64,000 bases of DNA from an uncultured Chloroflexia bacterium (GTDB lineage: Bacteria; Chloroflexota; Limnocylindria; Limnocylindrales; CSP1-4): contig CAWDUR010000015.1 of NCBI GenBank assembly GCA_963805585.1, forward strand, positions 256-64,255, given 5' to 3'. A model generated the notes under the pieces. That model saw only the letters and a program-made list of their open reading frames with translations. It was not told where the DNA came from and made no database searches. A program made the position numbers and the translations under genes. Positions 9,520 to 57,800 of the stretch are shown here, piece by piece (positions within the stretch are counted from its first letter, which is position 1; every line of letters starts with the position of its first letter).

Positions 9520-9723
9520 GTGGGACCGGAACTCGTCATCCTTCTGATCGTGCTGGTCGTGGTCGTGTTCTGGCGTGGACCATCGACGCTTCCCAAGCTG
9601 GGTGAGGCCCTGGGCAAGGCCGTCAAGGGCGCGCGGGACAACATGCCCGGCTCAGACGACGATAAGCCCGAGTCGGACTCGCCGGTCGATCCCACGGACG
9701 CCGGCCCGCGTGCCAGTCCCTGA
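9520..9723 (+). CDS. tatA: Twin-arginine translocase subunit TatA/E
   Basis: 67 aa: one N-terminal TM helix ([13 protein letters not shown]), then an amphipathic [20 protein letters not shown] and an acidic tail. GTG start. Confidence 0.8.
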
Positions 9724-9799
9724 CAGGTCCGCCGCGAGTCACCGGGCGCGTCAGATCACGCGCACGAAGGGTGCCGCGGAGGGCCCGTTGAACGATCCG

Positions 9800-10483
9800 A
9801 TGGACCGAGCCTCGGCGGTTAGAGGCCGGGCGCCCTCGACCGATCCGGCGGACCCTGCCGACCCCGCGGCGCCCAACGACCGCGCGGACCCTGCCGACCC
9901 CGCGGCGCCTGGCGACCAGGCCATCGAGTCGGCCGTCAGCACCATCCTGTCAGCCGTCGGGGAAGATGCCTCCCGCGAAGGCCTCGTGGACACACCGGCC
10001 CGCGTTCGGCGCATGTATGCAGAGCTCACGGCGGGCTACACCACGGACCCCGACGAAGTGCTCAACGACGCCATCTTCGATGTGGACTACAGCGAGATGG
10101 TGCTCGTCAAGGACATCCCCTTCCACTCACTGTGCGAACACCACCTGCTGCCCTTCGCCGGCTCGGTGGCCGTGGCCTACATCCCTGACGGCCGCGTCAT
10201 CGGCCTCTCCAAGATCCCGCGCGTCGTGGACATGTACGCGCGCCGGCTGCAGGTCCAGGAGCGTCTCACCCAGCAGATCGCCGACTTCCTCATGGAGCGC
10301 CTGGCGCCCAAAGGCGTGGGCGTCGTCGTCGAGGCCACGCACCTGTGCGCCAGCATGCGTGGCATCCGCAAGCCCGGCATGGTGATGACCACATCCGCCG
10401 TGCTGGGCATCTTCCGCCGCAGTGACAAGACGCGGGCGGAGTTCTTCAGCCACCTGCAGCGCCCCTCGTCCGGCGCACCGTAG
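9800..10483 (+). CDS. folE: GTP cyclohydrolase I
   Basis: [67 protein letters not shown] 9800 chosen. The N-terminal extension contains a 12-codon duplication. Confidence 0.9.
9848..9909 (+). repeat. In-frame 36-nt-period direct repeat (26-nt identical core x2) in the folE N-terminal extension
   Basis: GCGGACCCTGCCGACCCCGCGGCGCC occurs at 9848-9873 and 9884-9909, encoding ADPADPAAP(N/G)D. Confidence 0.8.
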
Positions 10484-10497
10484 GCGTCGGCCCTCGC

Positions 10498-10503
10498 TAC
10501 CAT
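10498..10503 (+). promoter_or_regulatory. Candidate -10 hexamer TACCAT, 6 nt upstream of ATG 10510 (leaderless-type)
   Basis: Matches TANNNT. The spacing would place the TSS at or next to the start codon. Confidence 0.3.
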
Positions 10504-10509
10504 CCCCGC

Positions 10510-10916
10510 ATGACCGACCGACCGCTCAAGGTGCTCATCGCCAAGCCCGGCCTGGACGGCCACGACCGTGGTGCCAAGGTGCTGGCACGTGGTCTCCGGG
10601 ATGAGGGTTTCGAGGTCGTCTATACAGGCCTGCGGCAGACGCCGGAGATGGTGGCCACGGCAGCCTTGCAGGAGGACGTGGACGTCGTCGGGCTCTCCAT
10701 CCTCTCCGGAGCCCACCTGACGCTTCTGCCCCGCATCTGCCAGCTCCTGCGCGAACAGGGCATGGCCGATGTGCTGGTGACAGCAGGCGGCATCATCCCC
10801 GAGGAGGACATCCCGGCGCTCAAGGATCCGGGGTGGCGGCCGTCTTCGGACCTGGAACGAGCATCGGCGAGGTGGCTGCCTTCATGCGGGAGCACGCGCC
10901 GCAGCGTCCGGAGTGA
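10510..10916 (+). pseudogene. Cobalamin-binding domain protein (methylmalonyl-CoA-mutase-type small/B12 subunit), one apparent 1-nt deletion near 10828
   Basis: [35 protein letters not shown] (DxHxxG B12 motif). The C-terminus [28 protein letters not shown] reads in another frame. TGA 10914-10916 overlaps GTG 10913. Confidence 0.8.
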
Positions 10917-11944
10917 CGACGCCCGGGTCGGCTGGCACCGGTACGCGCCTGGCGAACGATGCCCGCGCGGGCTCCCGGCTGGCCCTGTCGCGCTTGCTGA
11001 CGGCCATCGAATCACGCACCACGGTCGCTGAGGAAGCCCTGCGCAGTCTCTACTCGGAGGCCGGTGGCGCTCATGTCGTGGGCGTCACGGGACCCCCAGG
11101 TGGCGGCAAGTCGACGCTCGTGGCCGCCCTGGTCGCCGAGGTGCGCGCGAACGGCCGGGACGTGGCGGTGCTGGCCATCGATCCCTCCAGTCCTGTCACC
11201 GGTGGCGCCATCCTGGGCGACCGCATCCGCATGCAGCAGTACGCCCTCGACCCGGGCGTCTTCATCCGCTCCATGGCCTCGCGCGGGCATCTGGGTGGCC
11301 TGGCGGGCACGACGGCCGAATCAGCCGCCGCCCTGGCGGCCTGCGGCTTTGACCTTGTCTTCATCGAGACCGTGGGGACGGGCCAGAGCGAGGTGGAGGT
11401 GGCGGCCATCGCCGACACGACGGTCGTCGTGCAGGCGCCCGAGATGGGGGACGAGGTGCAGGCACTCAAGGCCGGCCTCCTGGAGGTCGCGGACATCGTC
11501 GTCGTCAACAAGTCGGACCGGCCGGGCGCCGACCGGGCCGCTGCCCAACTGAGCGCCGTGCTGAGCCTGGCAGGCGAGCCTGGGACAGGGGAGGCCCAGC
11601 CGGAGACAGGATCGGCGAGGACCGGCGCCGCGCCACGGCCCCGCCCGAAGCAGCCCCAGGTGCTGCTGGCCTCGGGGCTGACCGCGGCCGGGGTTCCGGA
11701 GCTGCTGGCTGCGCTCGACGCACACCATGAACGGCGGGCCGCGGCAGATGGCCCGCACGCCGCGCGCCTGGCACGGGCGCGTGCCCAGGTGGAGGGCATC
11801 CTGGCCGACCGTGTCCGCGAGACACTCTGGGCTGCTGGTCGTCGCGGAGCTACGGAAGCCCTCGTGGCTCGGGTCGCGTCACATGACCTCGACCCGTATG
11901 CGGCTGCCGACGCCCTGCTCGAGCAGATCGCGGCCCGGCCTTGA
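10913..11944 (+). CDS. meaB: Methylmalonyl-CoA mutase-associated GTPase (ArgK/MeaB family)
   Basis: [15 protein letters not shown] (P-loop), [33 protein letters not shown]. Confidence 0.9.
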
Positions 11945-11995: not shown

Positions 11996-14102
<2,107 letters not shown>

Positions 14103-14106
<4 letters not shown>

Positions 14107-14566
14107 GGGTGGTCCTCGGATGCTTCGGGACGAGCCGGCCGTCGGGCCTGCTCGTGGAGGAAGTCGATGGCTTCGAGGTAGCCACGCCAGCCGCGACCCA
14201 TGATGCGATGACTCACCACCGGCGTGATGACCGAGACACGTCGCCATGCCTCGCGCGCCAGGATGTCGCTGATGTGCACCTCCACGGAGGGACATTCGGC
14301 GCCGATGAGCGCGTCGTGAAGGGCATACGAGGTGTGCGTCAGGGCGCCGGGGTTGATGACGATGGCGTCGTAGTCGCGCTGCTCGACACGGTCGATGAGA
14401 GCACCCTCGTGGTTCGACTGGAAGGCCGCCAGCGAGTGGCCCAGGCCGGCGGCGTATTCGGCGGCCGCCTGCTCCACCTCGGCCAGCGTGGTCGTGCCGT
14501 AGATCTCCGGCTGGCGCAGGCCGAGGCGGCCCAGGTTGGGGCCGTTGAGCAGCAGGATATCGTCAC
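14103..14566 (-). CDS. aroQ: Type II 3-dehydroquinate dehydratase; start region disrupted by an apparent 1-nt deletion
   Basis: ILLLNGPNLGRLGLRQPEIYG..FQSNHEGALID..INPGALTHTSYALHDA..VEVHISD. The reading frame is open upstream but has no start codon. GTG at 14566 would form a GTGA overlap with the aroB stop but is out of frame by one base. Confidence 0.8.
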
Positions 14567-16167
14567 GGCCGGCCTCCCTGGATGACGTGCATGGCCTGCT
14601 CCAGCTCCGCCTCGCTCACGTCGTCGACCTCCTCCACCCGCCCGACGGCCATCGGCAGGATCCAGCGCTGCCGGCCGCGCAGGCGCTTCTTGTCGGTCGT
14701 CGCTGCCTGCCTGACCGCGGCGGGGTCGAAGGGGCGCCGGAGCGCATAGCCCAGGTCTGTCACGACGTCGTCGATGCGCTCGGCGAGGCCCGGCTCCGCA
14801 CCCCGCCCGGCGGCGATGGCGGCCACGGCGCGCAGGCCCAGCACGACCGCCTGGCCGTGCGGCAGGCGGTAGCCGCTCTCGATCTCCAGGGCATGGCCCA
14901 GCGTGTGGCCCAGGTTCAGGACACGCCGCTCGCCGGACTCGAAGGGGTCGCGGTCGACGACGTCCAGCTTGAGGCGGACGGAGCGGTCGATGATGGCGAA
15001 GCGGGCGGCCTCGTCGCCGCGCAGTGCGGCTCGCCCCCGTGTCTCGACCAGGTGCCACAGGCCAGGGTCCCCGATGAGCCCGGCCTTCAGCGACTCAGCC
15101 ATGCCGTCCAGTCGGCGTGGCCGCGGCAGGGTGCGCAGAGCCGCCATGTCGCCGACGATGGCCACGGGCGGCCAGAAGGCGCCGGCGGCGTTCTTCGCTT
15201 TCGAGAGGTCCACCCCGACCTTGCCGCCGATGGCCGCGTCCGTCATGGCCAGCCAGGTCGTCGGCAGGGCCACGAAGGGCACGCCGCGCAGGTAGAGGGC
15301 TGCGGCTGCGCCCACGACATCCGTGGTCGTGCCGCCGCCCACACCGACCCAGGCGTCGCCACGCTCGGCGCCCATGGCGCTGGCCGCCTCCAGGAGCCGC
15401 TCCACGGCGCGCAGGCGCTTGGAGCGCTCACCCGCGCTCATCGCCAGCCGGCGACCATCAGGAAGGGCGGCCAGGAGGTCAGGCAGCAGGGCTGCGGGGC
15501 GACGATCGGCGACCACGACCGGGACACCCGTGCTCGCGGCGGCGAGGGCATCGCCCAGGACCGCGCCATCGAGGTCGCGGCCGAGGACCACGCGTGCCGT
15601 CCGAGGGCCCATGGGATGGTCGCGCCGCACCTGCGCGTCGAAGAGGCGCCGCGCCGCAGGTCGGCCGGACGCGGCCGCGTCGAGGATGGTGGCCGCGACC
15701 ACCTCGGCTGGAGAGGTGGCGTCCACCCGCAGGTCGGCCGCGCGGTAATAGGGGGTCCGGGCCGCCCGCAGCGCGGCCAGGCGCCCGGCCGGGTCGCCGT
15801 CCAGCATGGGCCGTTCCTCGTCGTGCGCCGAGAGCCGGGTCAGCAGCACTTCGTCCGGAGCGTCCAGCCAGACCACCGTGCCCGCCTGCCAGAGCTGCCA
15901 GCGGTTGAGCGGGTCGACGACCGCCCCCCCGCCCGTGGCGAGGACGGCGCCGGGCACCTGACAGGCCTGGGCCAGCACGGCCGACTCGATCTCCCGGAAG
16001 AAGGCCTCGCCCCGCTCGCGGATGAGGTGTGCGGGGTGGGCGCCATGGCTCGACTCGATGTCGGCGTCGAGGTCCAGGAGCGGACGACCCAGCTGCCGGG
16101 CCAGGAGACGGCCGACGGTGGACTTGCCGACCCCGGAGAGCCCCACGAGGATGATGGCATCAGGCAT
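14563..16167 (-). CDS. aroK/aroB: Bifunctional shikimate kinase / 3-dehydroquinate synthase (AroK-AroB fusion)
   Basis: N-terminus: MPDAIILVGLSGVGKSTVGRLLA (P-loop kinase). It continues in frame, without a stop, into GVGGGTTTDVVGAAAALYLRGVPFVALPTT..AIGGKVGVDL..NLGHTLGHALE (DHQ synthase). ATG 16167 overlaps the aroE stop. Confidence 0.85.
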   Translation of the reverse strand: MPDAIILVGLSGVGKSTVGRLLARQLGRPLLDLDADIESSHGAHPAHLIRERGEAFFREIESAVLAQACQVPGAVLATGGGAVVDPLNRWQLWQAGTVVWLDAPDEVLLTRLSAHDEERPMLDGDPAGRLAALRAARTPYYRAADLRVDATSPAEVVAATILDAAASGRPAARRLFDAQVRRDHPMGPRTARVVLGRDLDGAVLGDALAAASTGVPVVVADRRPAALLPDLLAALPDGRRLAMSAGERSKRLRAVERLLEAASAMGAERGDAWVGVGGGTTTDVVGAAAALYLRGVPFVALPTTWLAMTDAAIGGKVGVDLSKAKNAAGAFWPPVAIVGDMAALRTLPRPRRLDGMAESLKAGLIGDPGLWHLVETRGRAALRGDEAARFAIIDRSVRLKLDVVDRDPFESGERRVLNLGHTLGHALEIESGYRLPHGQAVVLGLRAVAAIAAGRGAEPGLAERIDDVVTDLGYALRRPFDPAAVRQAATTDKKRLRGRQRWILPMAVGRVEEVDDVSEAELEQAMHVIQGGRP

Positions 16168-16957
16168 CGGAGCGCCCTCCCAGCTCCCGATCCAGGGCCG
16201 CGCGCATGGCGTCCGTGGGGGCGGGCTGGCGGAGCCACAGCTCCAGCGAGCGGCAGGCCTGGCCCAGGAGGATCCTGGCGCCGGCCTCGGCGGGCGCGCC
16301 GACCGCGTGCGCCTCGCGCACGAGTCGCGTGGGGCTGGGCCGGTAGACGAGGTCCAGCACGGCCAGGTCCGGTCGCAGGAGGGCCGCGGGGACCGGGCTC
16401 TCGTCGCTGCTCGTGCCCACCGGCGTGGCGTTGACGAGTAGGTCGGCGTCAGCGAGCTCATCGGCCAGGCGCGCCATGGAGCCATCCGAGCGGCGCAGGA
16501 TGCTGATGTGGCCGGCGCCCACGTGCCCAAGTGCCAGCTGGACGGCACGCCCGGCGCCGCCGGCGCCGAGCACGACGGCATGGCCGATGCCCTGCGGGCA
16601 GAGCCGGCCAAGCGCGTCCACGGTCGCCGGCAGATCCGTGTTGTGGCCGACGAGGCGGTCGCCGTCCCGGACGACGACGTTGACGGCCTCCGCCGCGCGA
16701 GCCTCGTCGGATAGTTCGTCCACGAGGGCTGCCACGGCCACCTTGTGGGGAACGGTCACGTTCGCGCCACCGGTGTCGGGCGCGCGCAGGCTGGCCACCA
16801 TGGCCGGCACGGCCTCCGGCGGGATGTCCGCGAGGACATAGTGGTGCGGCAGGCCCAGAGCGGCGAAGGCGGCCGCCATCATGGCCGGCGAGGCCGAGTA
16901 GGCGATGCCCTGGCCGAGCAGCCGGAATGTCAGGCTGTCGGCCACCGGGGATTCCAC
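16160..16957 (-). CDS. aroE: Shikimate 5-dehydrogenase
   Basis: SASPAMMAAAF..GANVTVPHKVA..VGHNTD..VVLGAGGAGRAV..LVNATPVG..DLVYRPS. Confidence 0.9.
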   Translation of the reverse strand: MESPVADSLTFRLLGQGIAYSASPAMMAAAFAALGLPHHYVLADIPPEAVPAMVASLRAPDTGGANVTVPHKVAVAALVDELSDEARAAEAVNVVVRDGDRLVGHNTDLPATVDALGRLCPQGIGHAVVLGAGGAGRAVQLALGHVGAGHISILRRSDGSMARLADELADADLLVNATPVGTSSDESPVPAALLRPDLAVLDLVYRPSPTRLVREAHAVGAPAEAGARILLGQACRSLELWLRQPAPTDAMRAALDRELGGRSDA

Positions 16958-16975
16958 CGCTCGGCGCGTCCGTCA

Positions 16976-18259
16976 TCAGGCGTCCTGGCCCACCAACGGC
17001 GTGGCTGCCTCGGCGGCCGTCTCGGGGAGGCTTGACAGCCCATCGCCGGCCCCGGCGCGACGACCGCGTGGCCCCATCGATCGGGCGCGGCGACGGCGCA
17101 CGGCCGCGCGCACGTCGCCCATGGTGTCGCCACCGAGGTCGGCCAGCAGGGCGTCCGCGAGCGCCAGGGCCAGCATGGCCTCGCCGACCACGGCAGCCCG
17201 CGGCATGATGGCCACGTCGCTGCGCTCGATGTGGGCGCGGCGCACCTCGCCCGTCTCGAGGTCCACCGCGTCGAGCGGCTTGCGCAGCGTGGACACCGGC
17301 TTCACGGCCACGCGGGCGACGATGGCGGCGCCGTTGCTCATGCCGCCCTCCGTGCCGCCGGCGCGGTTCGTCTTGCGTGCCCAGCCTGGGGCACCCGGCA
17401 CGACCTCGTCGTGGACCACGCTGCCGCGCCGGCTCGCCACGCCGAAGCCGAGGCCGATCTCGACACCCTTGACGGCCTGGATGCCCATGAGCACCGCGGC
17501 GATGGCGGTGTCCAGGCGGGTATCCCACTCGGCGTTGGAGCCGATGCCCACCGGCATGCCCTCAGCCACGACCACGAACGAACCACCCACGGAGTCGCCG
17601 GCTCCGACCGCTGCATCGACCTCGGCCAGCATGGCCGCCTCCGCGACGGGATCCGGGCAGCGCAGTGGCGTGGGCGTGCTTCGGTCGCCATCGACCCACC
17701 CGACAGGGACGTGCGCCACGGGGTCGTCCGCGCCGTCGAAGGCGCGCACCGGGCCGAGCTGGTCGACGAACGACCAGATGCGCACGCCGCACGTTTCAAG
17801 GAGCTGGCGGCAGACCGCGCCGGCGGCGACGCGCGGTGCCGTGGAGCGTGCCGAGGCTCGCTCGAGGACATCGCGGATGTCGCGCGCGTCGTACTTGATG
17901 GCCCCGGCCAGGTCGGCATGCCCCGGCCGCGCCAACGTGATGGCCCTGGGGCGCCGGGTCCGGGGTCGCGGCTCGACCGACATGCGCTCGGACCAGTCGA
18001 CCCAGTCCCGGTTGGGGATGCTGAAGGCGAGGGGAGAGCCAAGCGTGCGGCCGAAGCGCAGGCCAGCCGACCAAGTGACGCGATCTCGCTCGATCTGCAT
18101 GCGGCGGCCGCTGCCGTAGCCGTGCTGGCGCCGGGCCAGCTCGAGATCCACGGCCGCCGTGGAGACGCGCAGGCCGGCCGGCAGTCCATCCAGGATGCCG
18201 GACAGGCCGGGGCCGTGGGATTCGCCGGCGGTCAGGAGTCGCAAACGTCGTAAGGTCAT
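16976..18259 (-). CDS. aroC: Chorismate synthase
   Basis: LTAGESHGPGLSGILDGLPAG..RRQHGYGSGRRM..RPGHADLAG..ERASARSTA.. Confidence 0.9.
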   Translation of the reverse strand: MTLRRLRLLTAGESHGPGLSGILDGLPAGLRVSTAAVDLELARRQHGYGSGRRMQIERDRVTWSAGLRFGRTLGSPLAFSIPNRDWVDWSERMSVEPRPRTRRPRAITLARPGHADLAGAIKYDARDIRDVLERASARSTAPRVAAGAVCRQLLETCGVRIWSFVDQLGPVRAFDGADDPVAHVPVGWVDGDRSTPTPLRCPDPVAEAAMLAEVDAAVGAGDSVGGSFVVVAEGMPVGIGSNAEWDTRLDTAIAAVLMGIQAVKGVEIGLGFGVASRRGSVVHDEVVPGAPGWARKTNRAGGTEGGMSNGAAIVARVAVKPVSTLRKPLDAVDLETGEVRRAHIERSDVAIMPRAAVVGEAMLALALADALLADLGGDTMGDVRAAVRRRRARSMGPRGRRAGAGDGLSSLPETAAEAATPLVGQDA

Positions 18260-19629
18260 CGGCTGAGGGTCTCCAGGTCCGTCCAGAACGAAGGGTAGGA
18301 GACGGCCGCACAGGCGGGATCGTCGATGCGTACGGTACCCGCCACGCCGGTCAGCGCGGCGATCGCGAAGGCCATGGCGATGCGGTGATCGCCGTCCGTG
18401 TGGATGGCCGCCTCGCGGGCCTGGCCGCGGCTCACGAGCCAGCCGTCCGGGCGCTCCTCGACACGTGCGCCGACGGCGGCCAGATTGGCCGCTACGAGGG
18501 CGATGCGGTCCGACTCCTTGATGCGCAGCTCCGCGGCGCCGCGCAGCTCGCTACGGCCCTCCGCGGCGGCCATGGCCACGCCGATAAGGGGCAGCTCGTC
18601 GATGACGTCGGCCACGCGGTCGCCGCTGATCTCGATGGCTTGCAGAGGCCGCCCCCCGCGCACGGTGACCGTGCCCACCGGCTCGGGATGGTCGCGGGGA
18701 CCGCTGGGATCGCCCGGATCTCCGTCGTCGACGAGGACCTCGATGTCGGCGCCCATCTCGCGCAACACGTCGATGATGCCGACGCGCGAGGGGTTCAGCC
18801 CGACGCCGTCGAGACGGATCTCGGCCTCGGGGTGCAGGGCGCCCGCCACCAGCCAGGCCGCGGCGGACGAGATGTCGCCCGGGACGGTCATCGAGCGAGC
18901 CACGTATCCGGCGGGGCCCTCGATGGTGGTGACGAAGCCCTCGCGACGGATGGGCGCTCCCAGCCAGGCCAGCAGGCGCTCGGTGTGGTCACGCGTGGGC
19001 CCGGGCACCTCGATGCGCGTCGTGCCGTCCGCTGCCAGCGCGGCGAGGCTCAGGCAGCCGATGACCTGGGCGCTCGCCACCGTCGGACGGTGGGCCATCG
19101 CTCGCAGGGGGCGGCGCCCGGTGATGCGCAGGGGGGCATGGCCGTCGCTCGACTCGATGGTCGCGCCGATCGCTCGGAGCGGCACGGCGATGCGTTCCAT
19201 GGGCCGGCCGGAGAGCGAAGCGTCGCCGACCAGCGTGGCGGTGCCGGGTCGGCCGGCAAGGGCCCCGGCCAACAGGCGCATGGCGGTCCCCGCGTTGCCG
19301 CAGTCGAGCGTCTCCTCGCCATCACCGGGCAGGCCCGCCGCGGCTGGCGTGCCTCCGCCCCGGATCGTGGCCACCGTCCGGTCGGCGCCATCCGTCTCGA
19401 GGCTCGTGACGGCGCCCAGGCTGCGCAGTGCGCCCGCCATCGAGAGCACGTCGCCACCCGGTCGGTCGAGATGGACGGTGGCCGTCCCGGCGCCCATGGC
19501 GGTGAAGAGGAGCGCCCGGTGCGCGACCGACTTGTCAGCCGGGAGCCGCAGGCGGCCCGCCAGGCGCCCGGCACGCGAAACGACGCCCGACGGCTCCCGC
19601 TGGCGAGCGCCGGGCCGGCCCACCATCAC
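18256..19629 (-). CDS. aroA: 3-phosphoshikimate 1-carboxyvinyltransferase (EPSP synthase)
   Basis: [43 protein letters not shown]... 4-nt overlaps with both neighbours. Confidence 0.9.
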
Positions 19630-20996
19630 CTCGGTGATGCGCTGGTCGTGCCGGCAGCCGTGTCGCGGGCGGCTGCCGCCGCGGATTCCCGTGCCGCGGC
19701 GCTGCGGCGCTGAGCGGAGCGCGAGACGCGCAGGATGGCTGCGAAGACCATCTCGCGTTCGTCGGCCGTCAGGACGCTGCCCTCCACGTGTGTGGCCCGC
19801 TCGATGAGCTCGCGCTCACGGCCTACGTCGTGACCGTGGTCGTCCGCGGCACGCGTCTGCTGCACGGCTACGGAGAGCTCGGCGCGCTCCTCGAGCAGCG
19901 CCGCGAGTCGGGCATCCACGTCGTCGATGCGGGCGCGGAGTCGGCGTCGCTCGGCGGGCGGCTCGGCGGGCACGTAGGCACTGTGGGCCGTGGGGTTGCG
20001 CAGGTACTCGTGACGGCGCAGGTCGTCCATGAGATCGCCGAACTCCGGGAACGACAGCGACTGCTCGGAGTCGGAGCGAGCCATCGGCGGGTCCGGGTGG
20101 ACCTCGATGATGATGCCGTCCGCGCCCACGGCGGCTCCGGCCACGGCCAGAGGTCGTACGAGCGGACGATGCCCGGTGCCGTGCGAGGGATCGACCACGA
20201 TGGGCAGGTGCGTGCGCTCCCGGATGACCGGCACGGCGGAGAGGTCGAGCGTATTGCGTGTTGCCGTCTCGAAGGTGCGGATGCCCCGCTCGCAGAGGAC
20301 CACGTTGGGATTGCCGGAGCTCAGGATGTACTCGGCAGCCATGAGCCACTCCTCGATCGTGGCGGAGAGGCCTCGCTTGAGGAGCACCGGCTTGCGGCTC
20401 TGCCCTACGGCCTTGAGGAGGACGAAGTTGGCCATGTTGCGGGCGCCGACCTGGAGCATGTCCACGTAGCGCTCGAAGACCTCCACGTCGCCGGGGTCCG
20501 TGATCTCGCTGACCACCGGCAGGCCGGTCTCCTCGCGGGCCTCGGCGAGCAGCTTGAGTCCCTCCACCCCGAGGCCCTGGAAGGCGTAGGGCGACGAACG
20601 CGGTTTGTAGGCGCCGCCGCGCAGGAGCGTTGCGCCCTCGCGCTTCACCCAGCGGGCGGTGGCCATCAGCTGCTCTCGGGACTCCACGGCGCAGGGACCG
20701 GCCATGACCACCAGGGGGGCACCGGCACCGATCTCCACGTCACCGACCCTGACGCTGGAACGATCCGGGTGGTGCTCCGCGCTGGCCAGCTTGTAGGGCT
20801 TGCTGACGCGGATGCATTGCTCCACGCCGGGCATGACCTCGACATGCCGCACGCGCTCGACGCCCACGCCCACGACGCCCATGACGATGCGCTCCGCGCC
20901 AACCATGACGTACGTCTCGAGGCCCTCGTCGGCGACGACCTTGCGGACCGCGTCGATCTCCTCCTGCAGCGCTTCGGTGCGCATGACGATGATCAT
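19626..20996 (-). CDS. Type I-beta DAHP synthase with an N-terminal ferredoxin/ACT-like domain and a C-terminal AroQ-class chorismate mutase domain
   Basis: [30 protein letters not shown] (regulatory domain); [49 protein letters not shown] (catalytic barrel); C-terminal [51 protein letters not shown] (CM-like helices). ATG 20996. Confidence 0.8.
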
Positions 20997-21054
20997 CTCG
21001 GTACCACCCCGTCCTTTGGCTTGTCTTCCCTGCTGCTCGTTCACGCGGTGAGGC

Positions 21055-21088
21055 AACAAAAAACGCAGGGCCCCGGTGGGCTCCTGCG
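21055..21088 (-). terminator. Intrinsic (Rho-independent) terminator in the aro-operon leader
   Basis: Minus strand: GCAGG-A-GCCC ACCG GGGC-CCTGC (9 bp with a bulged A) followed by GUUUUUUGUU. It lies about 60 nt upstream of the DAHP-synthase ATG. Confidence 0.75.
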
Positions 21089-21142
21089 TCAGCGGGCACG
21101 AGTGCCTCTGCTGCCGGGCTCTGCCCGGCTGCCTCGTACCCG

Positions 21143-21169
21143 CTAGCTAAAGGACCAATAGCGAACCAT
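21143..21169 (-). CDS. Candidate leader peptide MVRYWSFS (8 codons + TAG)
   Basis: ATG GTT CGC TAT TGG TCC TTT AGC TAG on the minus strand. It carries Tyr, Trp and Phe, and uses AT-rich codons (GTT, TAT, TTT) that look rare for this GC-rich sequence. It lies between the promoter and the terminator. Confidence 0.6.
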
Positions 21170-21179
21170 GTGGCCTCGG

Positions 21180-21208
21180 ACCTTAGCGGTCGCCCGTGAG
21201 CCTGTCAA
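21180..21208 (-). promoter_or_regulatory. Candidate sigma70/SigA-type promoter TTGACA-N17-TAAGGT
   Basis: Minus strand: a perfect -35 (21208-21203), a 17-nt spacer and a TANNNT -10 (21185-21180). The sORF ATG lies 10 nt downstream of the -10, so the transcript is leaderless or nearly so. Confidence 0.55.
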
Positions 21209-21341
21209 ACGATGTCCGCATCTTGAGGCTGGACCTGCGCGACTGCGGCGTCGCCGCCGCTGACACTGCTGCCCGCTTCAAGATCCTGGCCGCCGCTCGC
21301 AGGGCACGCTGGCAGGCCGGAACCGCATCTGGCACCGGCGC

Positions 21342-21896
21342 TCAGCCGCGCCGCAGCCGCTCGAGCGCGATGGCCTGAAGGGGCAGCACCGAGAGGGCGT
21401 CGCCGATCTCGCCGGAATCGACCATGGCCATCACCTCGTCGAAGGGCAGCCAGCGCACGACGAGCTCCTCCGTGCCCTCTGGCTGGGCCTCGCCCTGCTC
21501 GAGGTCGGTGGCCAGGTACACGACGGCCTCCTCGTCGCTGACCGAGTTGGAGAGCTGGTAGCGACCGATCTCCCGCCAGGTCCGTGCCGTCAGCCCGGTC
21601 TCTTCGAGCAGCTCTCGCTGGGCACCCTCCAGGCTATCCTCGGCGTGGGGCGAGCCACCCTCGGGGATCTCCCAGGAGAGCTCGTCGAAGGCGTAGCGAT
21701 GCTGGCCCACGAGTGCCACTCGATCATCGTCGTCGATGGCGACCACGCCCACGGCCACGTTGGCGTAGTGCACGACGCCGTAGATGCCGGGCTGTCCGTC
21801 GGGCCGCGTGACCTCGTCGTGGTAGACGCTGATCCAGGGGTTCGCGATAGGCGATCCGCCGGGAGTGACGTGTCCAGGGCCCCACCGACGTGCCAC
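21342..21896 (-). CDS. NUDIX hydrolase (ADP-ribose pyrophosphatase-like)
   Basis: Nudix box GGSPHAEDSLEGAQRELLEETGL. Confidence 0.85.
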   Translation of the reverse strand: MARRWGPGHVTPGGSPIANPWISVYHDEVTRPDGQPGIYGVVHYANVAVGVVAIDDDDRVALVGQHRYAFDELSWEIPEGGSPHAEDSLEGAQRELLEETGLTARTWREIGRYQLSNSVSDEEAVVYLATDLEQGEAQPEGTEELVVRWLPFDEVMAMVDSGEIGDALSVLPLQAIALERLRRG

Positions 21897-21932
21897 CCCA
21901 GCCCGCGGAATCTGGTGAGACGCGCCGGACCC

Positions 21933-22691
21933 TCACGCCTCGCTGGGTCCCTCGGTGGCGTGGCGGCCGGCCGACGTCGCCGGCGACAGCACGCTCCGGC
22001 CACCGTCCACGCGCCACACCGCGCCGGTCACATAGGCCGCCTGCGGAGACAGCAGGAAGGCCGCCACCCCGGCCACCTCCTCTGCGCGCCCCATCCGCCC
22101 GAGCGGGACGTCCGGCCGGGCATCCGGGGGGTGCAGCGCCACGTCGAAGGGCGTGTCGATGGCGCCGGGTGCGAGGACGTTGACACGGATGCCGTCGGCG
22201 GCTCCGATGAGGGCCAGCGATCGCGCCAGACCCTCCAGACCGGCCTTGGCCGCGGCATAGGCGGGCGACCGCGCCGAGCCCTCCGCGGCGCCCACGATGC
22301 TACCCAGCAGCACGACCGAGCCGCGGCCCCGCTGCAAGGCCGGCCAGGCCAGGCGGGACGCCTCCCAGGCCGCCGTGAGGTCCACCCGGATGACCTGTTC
22401 CCAGTGCGCCGGGTCGTCCCAGGGACCGCTCGGCGGAAGGCCGGCCGCGCAGACGAGGCCGTCCAGGCGCCCCTCCGGCCCTTCGGCTGCGGCGATGGCT
22501 GCCTCGAGGTCGGCCGGTTCGGCGGCGTCCCCGGCGATGGCCAGCACGCCGTCAGGCGCCTGGACGCGGCGCGACAGGGAGGTCACCTTCCAGCCCTCAC
22601 CGCACAGCCGGGCAGCCACTGCCCAGCCGATGCCAGACGACCCGCCGGTGACCAGGCAGCGTGGCATAGCGGTCTCGCTCATGCCCTGCAT
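21933..22691 (-). CDS. SDR-family oxidoreductase
   Basis: LVTGGSSGIGWAVA (TGxxxGxG) and YAAAKAG (YxxxK). Confidence 0.85.
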   Translation of the reverse strand: MQGMSETAMPRCLVTGGSSGIGWAVAARLCGEGWKVTSLSRRVQAPDGVLAIAGDAAEPADLEAAIAAAEGPEGRLDGLVCAAGLPPSGPWDDPAHWEQVIRVDLTAAWEASRLAWPALQRGRGSVVLLGSIVGAAEGSARSPAYAAAKAGLEGLARSLALIGAADGIRVNVLAPGAIDTPFDVALHPPDARPDVPLGRMGRAEEVAGVAAFLLSPQAAYVTGAVWRVDGGRSVLSPATSAGRHATEGPSEA

Positions 22692-23764: not shown

Positions 23765-25032
23765 ATGAGTGCCGTCGAGGTCGTCCCCGTCATCGATCCG
23801 TGGGCCTCCGCCCAGCGCCAGTTCGACATCGCCGCTGACCGGCTCGGTCTCGACCCGGCGCTGCGGGCCGTGCTCCGCGAGGCTGAGCGCGAGCTCATCG
23901 TCTCGGTGCCCGTGCGCATGGACGACGGCAGCGTCCAGGTCTTCACCGGCTACCGCGTGCAGCACAACCTGGGCCGCGGTCCGTCCAAGGGCGGCCTCCG
24001 CTACCACCAGGACGTGACCCTCAACGAGGTGCGCGCCCTGGCCATGTGGATGACCTGGAAGTGCGCCGTGGTGGGCATCCCCTTCGGCGGCGGCAAGGGT
24101 GGCGTGCGCGTCGACCCCAAGAAGCTCTCCATGCGCGAGCTGGAGGGCCTGACGCGCCGCTTCACGACGGAGATCAGCGTCCTCATCGGGCCGGAGAAGG
24201 ACATCCCGGCGCCGGACGTCAACACCAACGCCCAGACGATGGCCTGGATCATGGACACCTACTCCATGCACGTCGGCTACACCGTGCCCGGCGTGGTGAC
24301 CGGCAAGCCCATCAGCCTGGGCGGGTCGGAGGGTCGCCACGAGGCCACCGGCCGCGGCGGCGTGGTGACCATCGTGGAGGCTGCCAGGCACCTCGGCCTC
24401 GCCATCGAGGGCGCCACGGTGGCCATCCAGGGCTTCGGCAACGCCGGCGCCACGGCCGCCTACCTGCTCGAGGACCTGGGCGCCAGGGTCGTGGCCGTGT
24501 CCGACTACGTCGGGCGGCATCCACCGCGCCGACGGGCTGGACATCAAGGCCGTTCGCAACTGGAAGGCCGAGCACGGCACGGTGGTCGGCTTCCCCGGTG
24601 CGCGAGCCCATCAGCAACGAGGCGCTGCTCGAGCTGGACGTGGACATCCTGGCCCCGGCGGCCCTGGAGAGCCAGATCACGGCCGCCAACGCCGAGCGGG
24701 TGCGGCCCCGGATCCTGGCGGAGCTGGCCAACGGCCCCACGACGCCCGATGCGGACGTCATCCTCGCCCGCAACGGCGTGTTCGTCATCCCGGACATCCT
24801 CTGCAACGCCGGCGGCGTGACGGTCAGCTACTTCGAGTGGGTGCAGGACCTCAACCGCGACCAGTGGTCGGAGGCCATCGTCAACGCCAAGCTCACCGAG
24901 ATCATGGTGCGCAGCTTCGGCGAGGTGCTGGCCATGTCCCTGCGGGAGAATGTGGACATGCGGCTGGCGGCCTACCTGCTGGCCGTGGACCGCGTGGCCT
25001 CAGCCACGGCGCTGCGCGGCATCTACCCCTAG
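23765..25032 (+). pseudogene. gdh: Glutamate dehydrogenase (Glu/Leu/Phe/Val dehydrogenase family), two frame changes (about 24513 and about 24600)
   Basis: [40 protein letters not shown]; then [22 protein letters not shown]; then [38 protein letters not shown]. Confidence 0.85.
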
Positions 25033-44250: not shown

Positions 44251-44336
44251 GGAGAGGTGGCCGAGTGGTTGAAGGCGACGGTCTTGAAAACCGTTGGGCG
44301 AAAGCCTCGTGGGTTCGAATCCCACCCTCTCCGCCA
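44251..44336 (+). tRNA. tRNA-Ser (anticodon UGA), CCA encoded
   Basis: GGAGAGG acceptor pairs with CCTCTCC. 3-bp D stem. Anticodon stem ACGGT/ACCGT with loop CUUGAAA. Long variable arm. T arm GTGGG-TTCGAAT-CCCAC. Discriminator G + CCA. Confidence 0.9.
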
Positions 44337-56828: not shown

Positions 56829-57161
56829 CTGGCGGGCAATACGGCAGCTAAGGCACCGAGAGCCTTGACCTCTGGTACGCGAAAGGCGAGACCAGGGACC
56901 TGATGCCCGAGGACGGTGCATGGCCGTGGATCACGGGTCAGTTCGGGCGTCAGTGCGTCGACTACTTCACCGACAAGGTCGTTCTCGAGGCTGCCGGGAA
57001 GTTCACCTTCACGTCGCATCTCTTCGACCATTCAGGTCCTTCGCCTCTTGAACCGAGTGCTACCGCCGTGGCGTCATGCGTGATGAGCGGGAGGCGTTGA
57101 GGCGCGGCCCACATCCTGGCCGCCGGGACCGCGTCGAGCCACTGGCGGACCCGGCCCGCGC

Positions 57162-57800
57162 ATGAAGGGGGATCACATGCGCAGGCTGTGGGCCATCGGC
57201 GCGGCTGCCCTCGTGTGCATGGCACTCGCTGGGGTGGCCGATGCGGCCGCCAGGACGCCGCTCGGTCTCAACATCACGGTGGACTCCGGCGCTGAGGCGG
57301 CCCAGGGCGGCACGGGTGAGGTCGTCCCCGTCCCCCTCTGGAGGACCACCTCCACGATGACGGCCGTGCGCTACGGCGCTCCCGGGTTCCCGACCAGGGC
57401 CCAGGCCAGGGCCGGCAAGGGCGAGGCCAACTTCTTCTACTGCGGTGACATCACAGCCGGCTCGATGGCGCGCCAGCGGGTCAGGATCCACGGTCGCGAG
57501 CGGCTCACTGACAGCGGTGGCCTGGCGCTCGATCTGTCGGTGCGTATCGGGGTTGCCGCCGAGGATGGCGATGCGGGTCGCATGATCGTGCGCTACATCG
57601 ACGGCTCCGGTGGCCTGCTCGGCACGCTGGAGACAGCGACGGTACAAGCGACCGGCGGCTCGATGTCCCGCACCAGGATCTCGGGCGCCGTCCCTGCAGG
57701 CACGCGAACACTCCAGGTCATCCTCCAGGGCACAGGCACTGCCGGGACCGACTGTGATGTCTACTTCGACAACGTGAGCGTCAAACTGGTGGCTTCCTGA
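57162..57800 (+). CDS. Secreted hypothetical protein with a beta-sandwich (galactose-binding/CBM-like) flavour
   Basis: Signal-like MRRLWAIGAAALVCMALAGVADA. C-terminus ..VPAGTRTLQVILQGTGTAGTDCDVYFDNVSVKLV. Alternative ATG at 57177. Confidence 0.45.
   Translation: MKGDHMRRLWAIGAAALVCMALAGVADAAARTPLGLNITVDSGAEAAQGGTGEVVPVPLWRTTSTMTAVRYGAPGFPTRAQARAGKGEANFFYCGDITAGSMARQRVRIHGRERLTDSGGLALDLSVRIGVAAEDGDAGRMIVRYIDGSGGLLGTLETATVQATGGSMSRTRISGAVPAGTRTLQVILQGTGTAGTDCDVYFDNVSVKLVAS

Follow-up and report, generated by a model that had tools for sequence, protein, structure and literature searches.

A candidate leader-peptide attenuator family upstream of the aro-trpEG operon in Candidatus Limnocylindria

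In classic transcription attenuators, a stalled ribosome frees strand 2 of the leader RNA, which pairs with strand 3 as an antiterminator, and at pyrBI and ampC a nearby ribosome prevents closure of the terminator hairpin without any antiterminator. The element considered here precedes an aro-trpEG operon on the minus strand of a 64-kb stretch of contig CAWDUR010000015.1 (the window, meaning the whole 64,000-nucleotide stretch that was analysed) from a bacterium of Candidatus (Ca.) Limnocylindria, an uncultured class of Chloroflexota known from metagenome-assembled genomes (MAGs). Comparative sequence evidence indicates that this element is very probably a leader-peptide (ribosome-mediated) transcription attenuator of that operon. 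It supports the candidate attenuator sensing Tyr, Trp, and Phe that had been put forward in an earlier reading of this DNA (the original prediction), under which the operon would be regulated by amino-acid supply.

Aromatic leader peptides have been described in other phyla. In Corynebacterium glutamicum, the leader aroR, with a Phe-Tyr-Phe sequence upstream of aroF, responds to Phe, with transcription increasing upon ribosome stalling, and the aromatic pathway of the same organism is also controlled by leader-peptide attenuation through trpL (PMC11802643, PMC4046766). The aroF-linked aromatic leader peptide of Corynebacterium that the original prediction had mentioned is real, and is this aroR (PMC11802643, PMC4046766). 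In Acholeplasma, the candidate uORFC-13-1 upstream of aroF comprises a promoter, a short open reading frame (ORF) with Phe codons, and a terminator (PMC8632094). For Chloroflexota, no attenuator of the aro leader kind was found reported in the literature.

In the scheme proposed for Ca. Limnocylindria, a consensus-like promoter would produce a transcript starting ~3-4 nucleotides (nt) before the AUG of an 8-codon ORF, in which the codons at positions -4, -3, and -2, counted back from the stop, would serve as a sensing run of Trp and Phe/Tyr codons that are rare in the genome. With ample charged Trp-, Phe-, and Tyr-tRNAs, the ribosome would complete the ORF and the terminator would act, leaving a ~115-nt transcript. 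Scarcity of any of these tRNAs would stall the ribosome in the aromatic run, and RNA polymerase would read into the nine-gene operon.

Architecture and conservation of the leader

The features of the locus are given below from the promoter onward, in window positions.

21203..21208, minus strand: -35 hexamer TTGACA, perfect in 82/82 distinct promoter regions of the family
21180..21185, minus strand: -10 hexamer TAAGGT, of the TAnnnT type found in 82/82 copies
21143..21169, minus strand: leader ORF, ATG GTT CGC TAT TGG TCC TTT AGC TAG, encoding MVRYWSFS and a stop
21160-21158, 21157-21155, and 21151-21149, minus strand: control codons TAT, TGG, and TTT of the window copy
21133..21144, minus strand: 5' arm of helix P1, AGCGGGUACGAG, starting within the leader stop codon
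21113..21129, minus strand: hairpin P2, GCCGGGC-AGA-GCCCGGC, enclosed by P1 as its cap and showing covariation
21103..21109, minus strand: purine bulge D, AGAGGCA, 7 nt, on the 3' side between P2 and P1
21091..21102, minus strand: 3' arm of helix P1, CUCGUGCCCGCU, pairing with AGCGGGUACGAG through one G.U pair among the others
21055..21089, minus strand: intrinsic terminator as a whole, hairpin -18.6 kcal/mol, beginning 1-2 nt past P1
21088-21064, minus strand: terminator stem-loop, CGCAGGAGCCC-ACCG-GGGCCCUGCG, with one bulged A and an extra A:U pair at 21089/21063
21063-21055, minus strand: U-tract UUUUUUGUU (U6GUU), directly 3' of the terminator stem
11996..20996, minus strand: regulated operon, from Pfam matches, its genes abutting or overlapping on one strand
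19626-20996, minus strand: first operon gene, an FXD-DAHP synthase-chorismate mutase fusion, from Pfam matches

The promoter, the MVRYWSFS ORF, P1, P2, and the terminator with its U-tract were thus all found on the minus strand where the original prediction had placed them. In the window copy, TTGACA and TAAGGT are 17 nt apart, and 10 nt (CCGAGGCCAC) lie between TAAGGT and the leader ATG. The DAHP-synthase ATG at 20996 is 61 nt past the U run, where a distance of about 60 nt had been estimated. Folding of the leader region, proposed at the time as a check, gave a minimum free energy (MFE) structure of 136 nt that recovers P1, P2, and the terminator at -71.6 kcal/mol (z = -4.3), and an 81-nt core folds at -58 kcal/mol (z = -6.15). 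A packaged terminator scan missed the aro-leader terminator because of its bulged A, and a packaged promoter scan missed the promoter because TAAGGT agrees with TATAAT at only 3/6 positions.

A scan for hairpins followed by U-tracts on both strands of the window has the aro-leader terminator as its sole match. In ~469 kb of related loci (L001-L014, L081-L210), the same scan produced 90 matches, of which 88 are the aro attenuator terminator and the remaining two are one and the same weak hairpin. Canonical terminators of this type seem to be nearly absent from Limnocylindria DNA and kept for regulation. Attenuators of the same design with other targets are not supported in this ~469 kb of related DNA, because it holds no other canonical terminators.

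The same unit was recovered from relatives by a protein anchor. Species-representative genomes scanned in this way yielded 14 Limnocylindrales loci with 73-95% protein identity, and in all 14 the DAHP-synthase gene is preceded by the promoter, short ORF, P1/P2, and terminator. Ten further contigs were reached through more distant homologous proteins, with no DNA pattern used, and the unit is present in 10/10 of these, for a total of 24/24 protein-anchored Ca. Limnocylindria loci. A search upstream of orthologous DAHP-synthase genes for a short ORF with Y/W/F codons plus a terminator had been suggested as a check, and these 24 loci answer it in the affirmative. A DNA pattern made of bulge D and the P1 3' arm gave 120 metagenome stretches, ~75 of them true elements, and contributed ~57 extra distinct copies to a family of 81 distinct copies. 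Wherever the 3' sequence is long enough, a DAHP-synthase gene (56-95% identity) follows within ~80-140 nt. The DAHP-synthase protein itself has hundreds of close metagenome relatives, the named ones being labelled Chloroflexota or Candidatus Limnocylindria.

In a search with a covariance model derived from 39 representatives, the copy in the window scored 121.7 bits, and there was no second copy in the 64-kb window, nor any copy in 66 DAHP-synthase loci of Firmicutes, Desulfurella, Dehalococcoidia, and Anaerolineae. Judged by these searches, the element appears to found a sizeable lineage-specific family with a non-canonical architecture. One MAG, MFD09779.bin.2.210, has two DAHP-synthase/chorismate-mutase loci (L002 and L014) on different contigs, each with its own attenuator, and their leaders read MHQYWYFS and MTSYWYFS; this pair is either a real duplication or the product of a mixed bin.

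The structure is supported by an RNAalifold alignment of 39 sequences, the consensus of which consists of P1, P2, and the terminator. In this consensus, 96.8% of cells are paired and ten pairs are changed on both sides, and sliding the 3' partners by one to three columns reduces the paired fraction to 34-44%. The covariation score is 0.209 versus 0.103 in shuffles, with 0/500 shuffles reaching the observed value, and covariation is found in 5 of 8 pairs of P2 and 4 of 10 pairs of the distal terminator stem. P1 is backed by conservation and energy rather than covariation because its foot, GCGGG:CCCGC, is nearly invariant, with one A.C exception in the 39 aligned sequences; the foot is unchanged in all 24 pattern-free loci. 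P1 starts in UAG in 81/81 copies, and the linker from P1 to the terminator measures 1-4 nt in 81/81, or 0-3 nt with the opening U's of the tract counted as paired to the linker. Bulge D is near-invariant as GCRNAGGCRN and differs in L203. The attenuator element is therefore more than a chance arrangement, being the sole canonical terminator in the window, conserved in relatives, and covarying.

Bulge D has a further complementarity outside the consensus structure. In the YWYFS/YWSFS, SWYYD, and WWYA clades, the sequence just past the U-tract (window 21050-21056) contains UGCCUC or CCUCUGC, which can form up to 9 contiguous pairs with D at -18.5 kcal/mol; other clades are non-complementary. This pairing could shape the read-through transcript. 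It was rejected as a switch because it is absent in those other clades and because the sequence is transcribed after the termination decision. Also rejected was the idea that D, with GAGG 5 nt ahead of GUG/AUG, could be the Shine-Dalgarno sequence of a second ORF running through the terminator, as such an ORF has no conserved length or frame and L203 is without GAGG.

The leader ORF and its codons

All 82 distinct upstream regions have the perfect TTGACA, a 17- or 18-nt spacer, and the TAnnnT box, with 9-10 nt from the -10 box to the start codon in 63/82 (range 8-16). Leaders start with ATG in 78 cases and with GTG in 4, and no conserved Shine-Dalgarno sequence was found between the -10 box and the leader start in these 82 regions. 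Based on the usual distance from a -10 box to the start of transcription, the transcript is predicted to begin near 21171-21173, with a 5' untranslated region of ~3-4 nt. The leader mRNA, having no conserved Shine-Dalgarno sequence and a short distance from -10 box to AUG, is therefore predicted to be leaderless or nearly so. Translation of a leader peptide without a ribosome-binding site is on record for C. glutamicum ilvB, in work cited in PMC4046766.

The peptides of the 81 distinct copies fall into 50 variants, 8-9 residues long (e.g. MQHPCWWYA); a lone apparent 6-residue peptide, MYWYFS, is an artefact of start-codon picking, and its true form is MSMYWYFS. Every copy (81/81) consists of an aromatic run, then exactly one non-aromatic codon, then UAG. 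Codons were tabulated by position, counting back from the stop, in 71 copies. Position -4 is UGG in 64/71, position -3 is F or Y in 64/71, position -2 is F or Y in 71/71, and position -1 is a small residue encoded by Ser, Ala, Gly, or Thr codons. F, W, and Y occur together in 70/81 peptides, with F and Y only in 7 and W and Y only in 4, and some clades have E or Y in place of W.

The ORF is enriched in codons for the end products of the pathway, and an intrinsic terminator lies between it and the first structural gene. Aromatic codons account for 3 of 8 in the window leader and number 2-5 across the 81 copies, against a background F/Y/W use of ~7% of codons, an estimate from window codon counts. 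Leaders have drifted through UAU/UAC synonymous changes and through UUU/UAC swaps that keep an aromatic residue, with the frame and the 8-9-codon length retained. This is evidence that the leader ORF would be read as codons: frame, length, and aromatic run persist while the peptide varies.

Codon choice within the leader is unusual for the genome. In the 23 likely genes of the window that served as the codon-usage reference, TTT makes up 2/245 Phe codons (<1%) and TAT 17/152 Tyr codons. The suggestion that the aromatic codons of the leader are AT-rich and rare for this genome is borne out by these counts, and the positional pattern of TTT is sharper still: Phe at -2 and -3 is TTT in 57/57 leader codons, and TTC dominates at -5 and -6. 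Tyr codons have no position-dependent trend. The stop codon is likewise distinctive, with TAG in 3/23 window genes versus UAG in 81/81 leaders.

This codon-level pattern bears on a reading in which the ORF is incidental and P1, P2, and D form a protein-, ligand-, or RNA polymerase-binding element, riboswitch-like or resembling put of phage HK022, that controls the terminator. Such an element would fit the lack of a detected RNA antiterminator and the sequence conservation of D and the P1 foot, which exceeds what base pairing requires, but conservation operates at the level of codons (F/Y swaps, synonymous changes, frame, length, and start-to--10 distance) and no Rfam family is matched at threshold. 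An incidental ORF is accordingly highly improbable.

Nor is it at all likely that the nascent peptide (W-F-Y-X) itself is, like TnaC, a sensor of free aromatic amino acids within the exit tunnel, with arrest at the stop codon opening P1 and permitting termination. Free F/Y swaps at -3/-2 and the change of W to E or Y in some clades fit better with codon and tRNA sensing, and to our knowledge, small-molecule-sensing arrest peptides are far longer than 8-9 residues. Such arrest would nevertheless have the correct polarity, and it would account for the conservation of the C-terminal motif with UAG and for the location of the stop codon within P1.

Terminator control and the proposed switching step

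The original prediction likened this layout to the classic attenuators of the trpL and pheL type. A leader ORF and a terminator do precede an aromatic operon, but the arrangement is not the classic one, as the control codons lie outside P1. The same prediction cautioned that no clean antiterminator pairing could be found by eye, and masking, shuffling, and covariation tests indicate that this is a real property of the family.

Masking was applied to 15 elements by covering the RNA stepwise from its 5' end and computing the base-pair probability of the terminator. No loss of the terminator dependent on ribosome position was found in these 15 elements, and its probability was ~1.0 (>=0.98) at every mask position. 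Two Desulfurella DAHP-synthase leaders served as a positive control. They come from Desulfurella sp. MAGs (L067 ~185-358 and L068 ~2240-2407), in which a leader of 25-27 codons, ending in SYWWYYFYSWQV or SYWWYYFNSWWE before the stop, precedes DAHP synthase; the 5' arm of the antiterminator contains the UAG stop and its 3' arm overlaps the terminator. In these two leaders, terminator probability rose from 0.00 to 0.99-1.00 exactly once the stop codon was masked, and the masking calculation therefore does detect a real antiterminator. The Desulfurella leader appears to be an independent aromatic attenuator of the textbook two-state kind.

Pairing energies and covariation agree with the masking results. 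Across 81 sequences, the terminator 5' arm pairs with upstream RNA at a mean of -4.0 kcal/mol versus -4.85 for a shuffled arm, and a scan of all column pairs found stacked covarying pairs nowhere but in P2 and the terminator. No antiterminator that excludes the terminator according to ribosome position was thus detected. The canonical 1:2/2:3/3:4 switch was rejected on the location of the control codons outside P1 and on the negative masking, pairing, and covariation tests. Two other candidate pairings were also set aside. Leader codons can pair with the terminator 5' arm, as CUUCUG does with CAGGAG in the FFWYY clade, but this is seen in some folds only, is not conserved elsewhere, and would be masked by a stalled ribosome. 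Lengthening P1 by way of the last sense codon, so that it reaches the terminator foot, adds only 2 weak pairs, which are not conserved and would be masked during a stall.

A canonical attenuator with a weak antiterminator is unlikely on this evidence, although some folds resemble one. In such an attenuator, a stalled ribosome would open P1, and D with the P1 3' arm would pair with an arm of the terminator and delay its folding, using either the terminator 5' arm (GG..CUC.UGC with GCA.GAG.CC) or the 3' arm (GCAG-A-GGC with GCC-CUGC). If RNA lacking the terminator 3' arm is folded with the P1 5' arm masked, D/P1-3' pairs with the terminator 5' arm as a small hairpin in many sequences, and with a mask of at least 9 nt past UAG, such a hairpin is present in the MFE fold of most sequences. 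D also resembles the terminator 5' arm, and its duplex with the terminator 3' arm has a mean of -10.2 versus -6.1 kcal/mol for shuffled D. Neither pairing is backed by covariation, however. The 5'-arm pairing, at ~-4 kcal/mol, is no better than shuffled and vanishes in clades with different terminator arms (GCAGUGG or GCAGAGA). L202, L203, and L207 have lost the 3'-arm pairing with no compensating change, and it is therefore treated as a possible helper rather than a switch. The terminator, at -15 to -21 kcal/mol, is the favoured structure whatever the mask position, and a stall on the aromatic codons falls short of P1; only a ribosome at the stop codon reaches P1, which is the wrong polarity for a biosynthetic operon.

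The switching step may instead be steric, a reading held tentatively at somewhat under even confidence, in which closed P1 and a ribosome stalled at its foot block the terminator with no competing antiterminator hairpin. With the last aromatic codon in the A site, and counting from the first P-site nucleotide, the spacer codon would occupy +7 to +9, the U and A of the stop +10 and +11, and its G +12. This G forms the first invariant P1 pair, which would lie just outside the ribosomal helicase site, reportedly placed at about +11 by Takyar and colleagues in 2005. Since P1 begins at +12, beyond that site, a stall anywhere in the aromatic run would leave P1 closed, and only a ribosome advanced to the stop codon would unzip the P1 foot. 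Closed P1 would loop out ~57 nt and leave only 1-4 nt between its foot, where the stalled ribosome sits, and that of the terminator stem; the final terminator base pairs would be unable to close inside RNA polymerase, and transcription would continue. In replete cells, the ribosome would depart while the polymerase transcribes the looped-out segment, or would hold the P1 foot open at a slow UAG, and in both cases the terminator would be released.

Published work on the terminator tR2 supports this steric step. A ribosome a few nt upstream of tR2 reduced termination from ~90% to <10%, closure of the last 2-3 stem pairs was essential for termination, and ~10-15 free nt were needed between the A site and the terminator stem (PMC4824070). 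In the aro leader, occlusion of the terminator 5' arm by a ribosome nearby in linear sequence was not found, as the stop ends at 21143 and the stem starts at 21088-21089, with 54 nt between; closeness of ribosome and terminator would arise only through closed P1. Counted through the P1 base pair, the distance from A site to stem is ~9-12 nucleotide equivalents for a stall at -2 and longer for stalls further upstream, which would fit the occurrence of the rarest codon, TTT, at -2 and -3. The steric reading is further favoured by the invariant one-codon spacer, the onset of P1 in UAG in 81/81 copies, and the linker of 1-4 nt. P1 may then be a clamp that brings the stalled ribosome to the terminator foot, with the 57-nt loop as a timer that lets an unstalled ribosome leave first, although this division of roles is proposed with more reserve than confidence.

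The same geometry is shared by a reading in which closed P1 alone is the antiterminator, with no contribution from the bulk of the ribosome, and a rigid helix 1-4 nt upstream keeps the terminator foot from the RNA exit channel. Termination would then occur only while a ribosome at the rare UAG holds the GCGGG foot open, and the operon would be on whenever the leader is not translated. The use of UAG in 81/81 leaders versus 3/23 genes would be explained, as a UAG with C after it is terminated slowly, which would keep the ribosome at the stop, and P1 matches by position the Desulfurella antiterminator, the 5' arm of which also contains a stop codon. This reading is rather doubtful all the same. 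The G of UAG is needed anyway for the first P1 pair, so that the choice of UAG may be trivial; helices near functional terminators are common elsewhere; and the restriction of rare TTT to -2/-3, beside P1, suggests that the position of the stall matters, for which there is no need if P1 acts alone.

Several points weigh against the steric reading as well. The step is without direct precedent, and closed P1 alone may not block termination. Riboswitch 'off' states and the his leader have closed helices a few nt upstream of terminators that still work. The complementarity of D to the terminator 3' arm gives a weak RNA antiterminator a small probability, and bulge D, the invariant, non-covarying P1 foot, and the universal UAG fall outside the steric model. 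The invariance of D and of the P1 3' arm is in part imposed by the search, as most copies were collected with a pattern that fixes both. A ribosome lingering at the stop as the polymerase reaches the U-tract would produce read-through in replete cells too, and the timing on which the steric reading depends is assumed.

Operon context and comparison with described leaders

The gene following the leader is a DAHP synthase, as the original prediction had it, but it joins three domains in one protein: a ferredoxin-like regulatory domain, a DAHP synthase, and a chorismate mutase. After this fusion gene come aroA, aroC, aroE, an aroK-aroB fusion, aroQ, trpE, and trpG (to 11996), and by Pfam the operon contains all seven steps of the shikimate pathway together with two branch-point enzymes. 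On its other side, upstream of the aro leader, is a NUDIX hydrolase gene that ends at 21342. The window as a whole has a G+C content of 70.6%.

Other features of the window were recorded alongside. A plus-strand group at 9575-11944 encodes GTP cyclohydrolase I, a B12-binding domain protein, and a MeaB-type GTPase, and is convergent with the end of the aro-trp operon. A Glu/Leu/Phe/Val dehydrogenase gene at 23765-25032 (plus strand) is present as two overlapping frames, 23765-24820 and 24046-25032, which suggests a frameshift or an assembly error. The sole tRNA gene of the window, tRNA-Ser with anticodon tga, is at 44251-44336 (plus strand), and a c-di-GMP-II-GCG riboswitch aptamer (RF03170) is at 57081-57165 (plus strand), scoring 69.4 bits against a gathering score of 47.9.

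The aro leader is of interest for both regulation and annotation. One 8-codon sensor appears to integrate Trp, Phe, and Tyr supply, and a single promoter would drive the common aromatic pathway in its entirety along with chorismate mutase and anthranilate synthase. The family suggests that Limnocylindria use consensus sigma-70-type promoters and leaderless translation. An Rfam family could be seeded from its alignment and covariance model, which could help in annotating Limnocylindria MAGs. The family is large (81 distinct copies) and compact (~120 nt), the negative antiterminator result stands beside a working positive control, and it makes steric control of a terminator by ribosome position directly testable. 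If the steric reading is true, steric exclusion, and not alternative base pairing, would be a new switching principle for translation-coupled attenuation.

The element would work like an attenuator but belongs to no described leader family. An Rfam search of 20000-22500 at E values up to 10 found no amino-acid leader family (Trp_leader RF00513, Phe, His, Leu, or Thr), and a search of the whole window at the gathering threshold found none either. The best Rfam match is Atu_C8 (RF02502), with 30.3 bits, an E value of 0.0019, and full model length, short of its gathering threshold of 50. Homology to Atu_C8 was rejected, as the match is sub-threshold, the Rhizobium copy has an unrelated ORF upstream of an MFS-like transporter, and only the general architecture is alike. 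That copy, in Rhizobium lusitanum NZ_CP050307.1 (L211 2501-2620), has a short ORF, MKITMVLAVVIGRMGGMV and a stop, running into the first helix, and ends in a terminator just upstream of the MFS-like transporter gene. The Atu_C8 'sRNA' may thus itself be a leader-peptide attenuator.

Among aromatic leaders before DAHP-synthase genes, C. glutamicum aroR is alike in placing an aromatic leader peptide ahead of that gene, a functional analogy drawn from published descriptions, and is unlike in belonging to another phylum, having no Trp codon, and reportedly responding to Phe only. Acholeplasma uORFC-13-1 shares the order of promoter, short ORF, and terminator before aroF; going by its description, it is set apart by phylum, AT-richness, Phe codons only, and a different structure. 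The Desulfurella leader is aromatic-rich, with UAG within the 5' arm of a helix, followed by a terminator and DAHP synthase, as in Limnocylindria. The stop-codon helix of Desulfurella shares nucleotides with the terminator, whereas P1 of Limnocylindria only abuts it.

The E. coli leaders trpL and pheL (Rfam Trp_leader and Phe_leader) likewise combine a short ORF rich in end-product codons with a terminator before the first structural gene, and charged tRNA is presumed to be the signal in both cases. In trpL and pheL, the 5' strand of helix 1:2 contains the control codons, and formation of 3:4 is in competition with a 2:3 antiterminator, whereas in Limnocylindria the codons are upstream of P1 and no antiterminator was detected. 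The Limnocylindria leader also differs in having only 8-9 codons, in being predicted leaderless or nearly so, and in mixing W, F, and Y. With respect to the switching step, the closest parallels are pyrBI, pyrE, ampC, and tR2, in which a ribosome near the terminator foot prevents hairpin closure without an RNA antiterminator (for tR2, PMC4824070). In pyrBI, pyrE, and ampC, the ribosome is near in linear sequence and the signal is the UTP level or growth rate, whereas in Limnocylindria the signal would be aminoacyl-tRNA supply.

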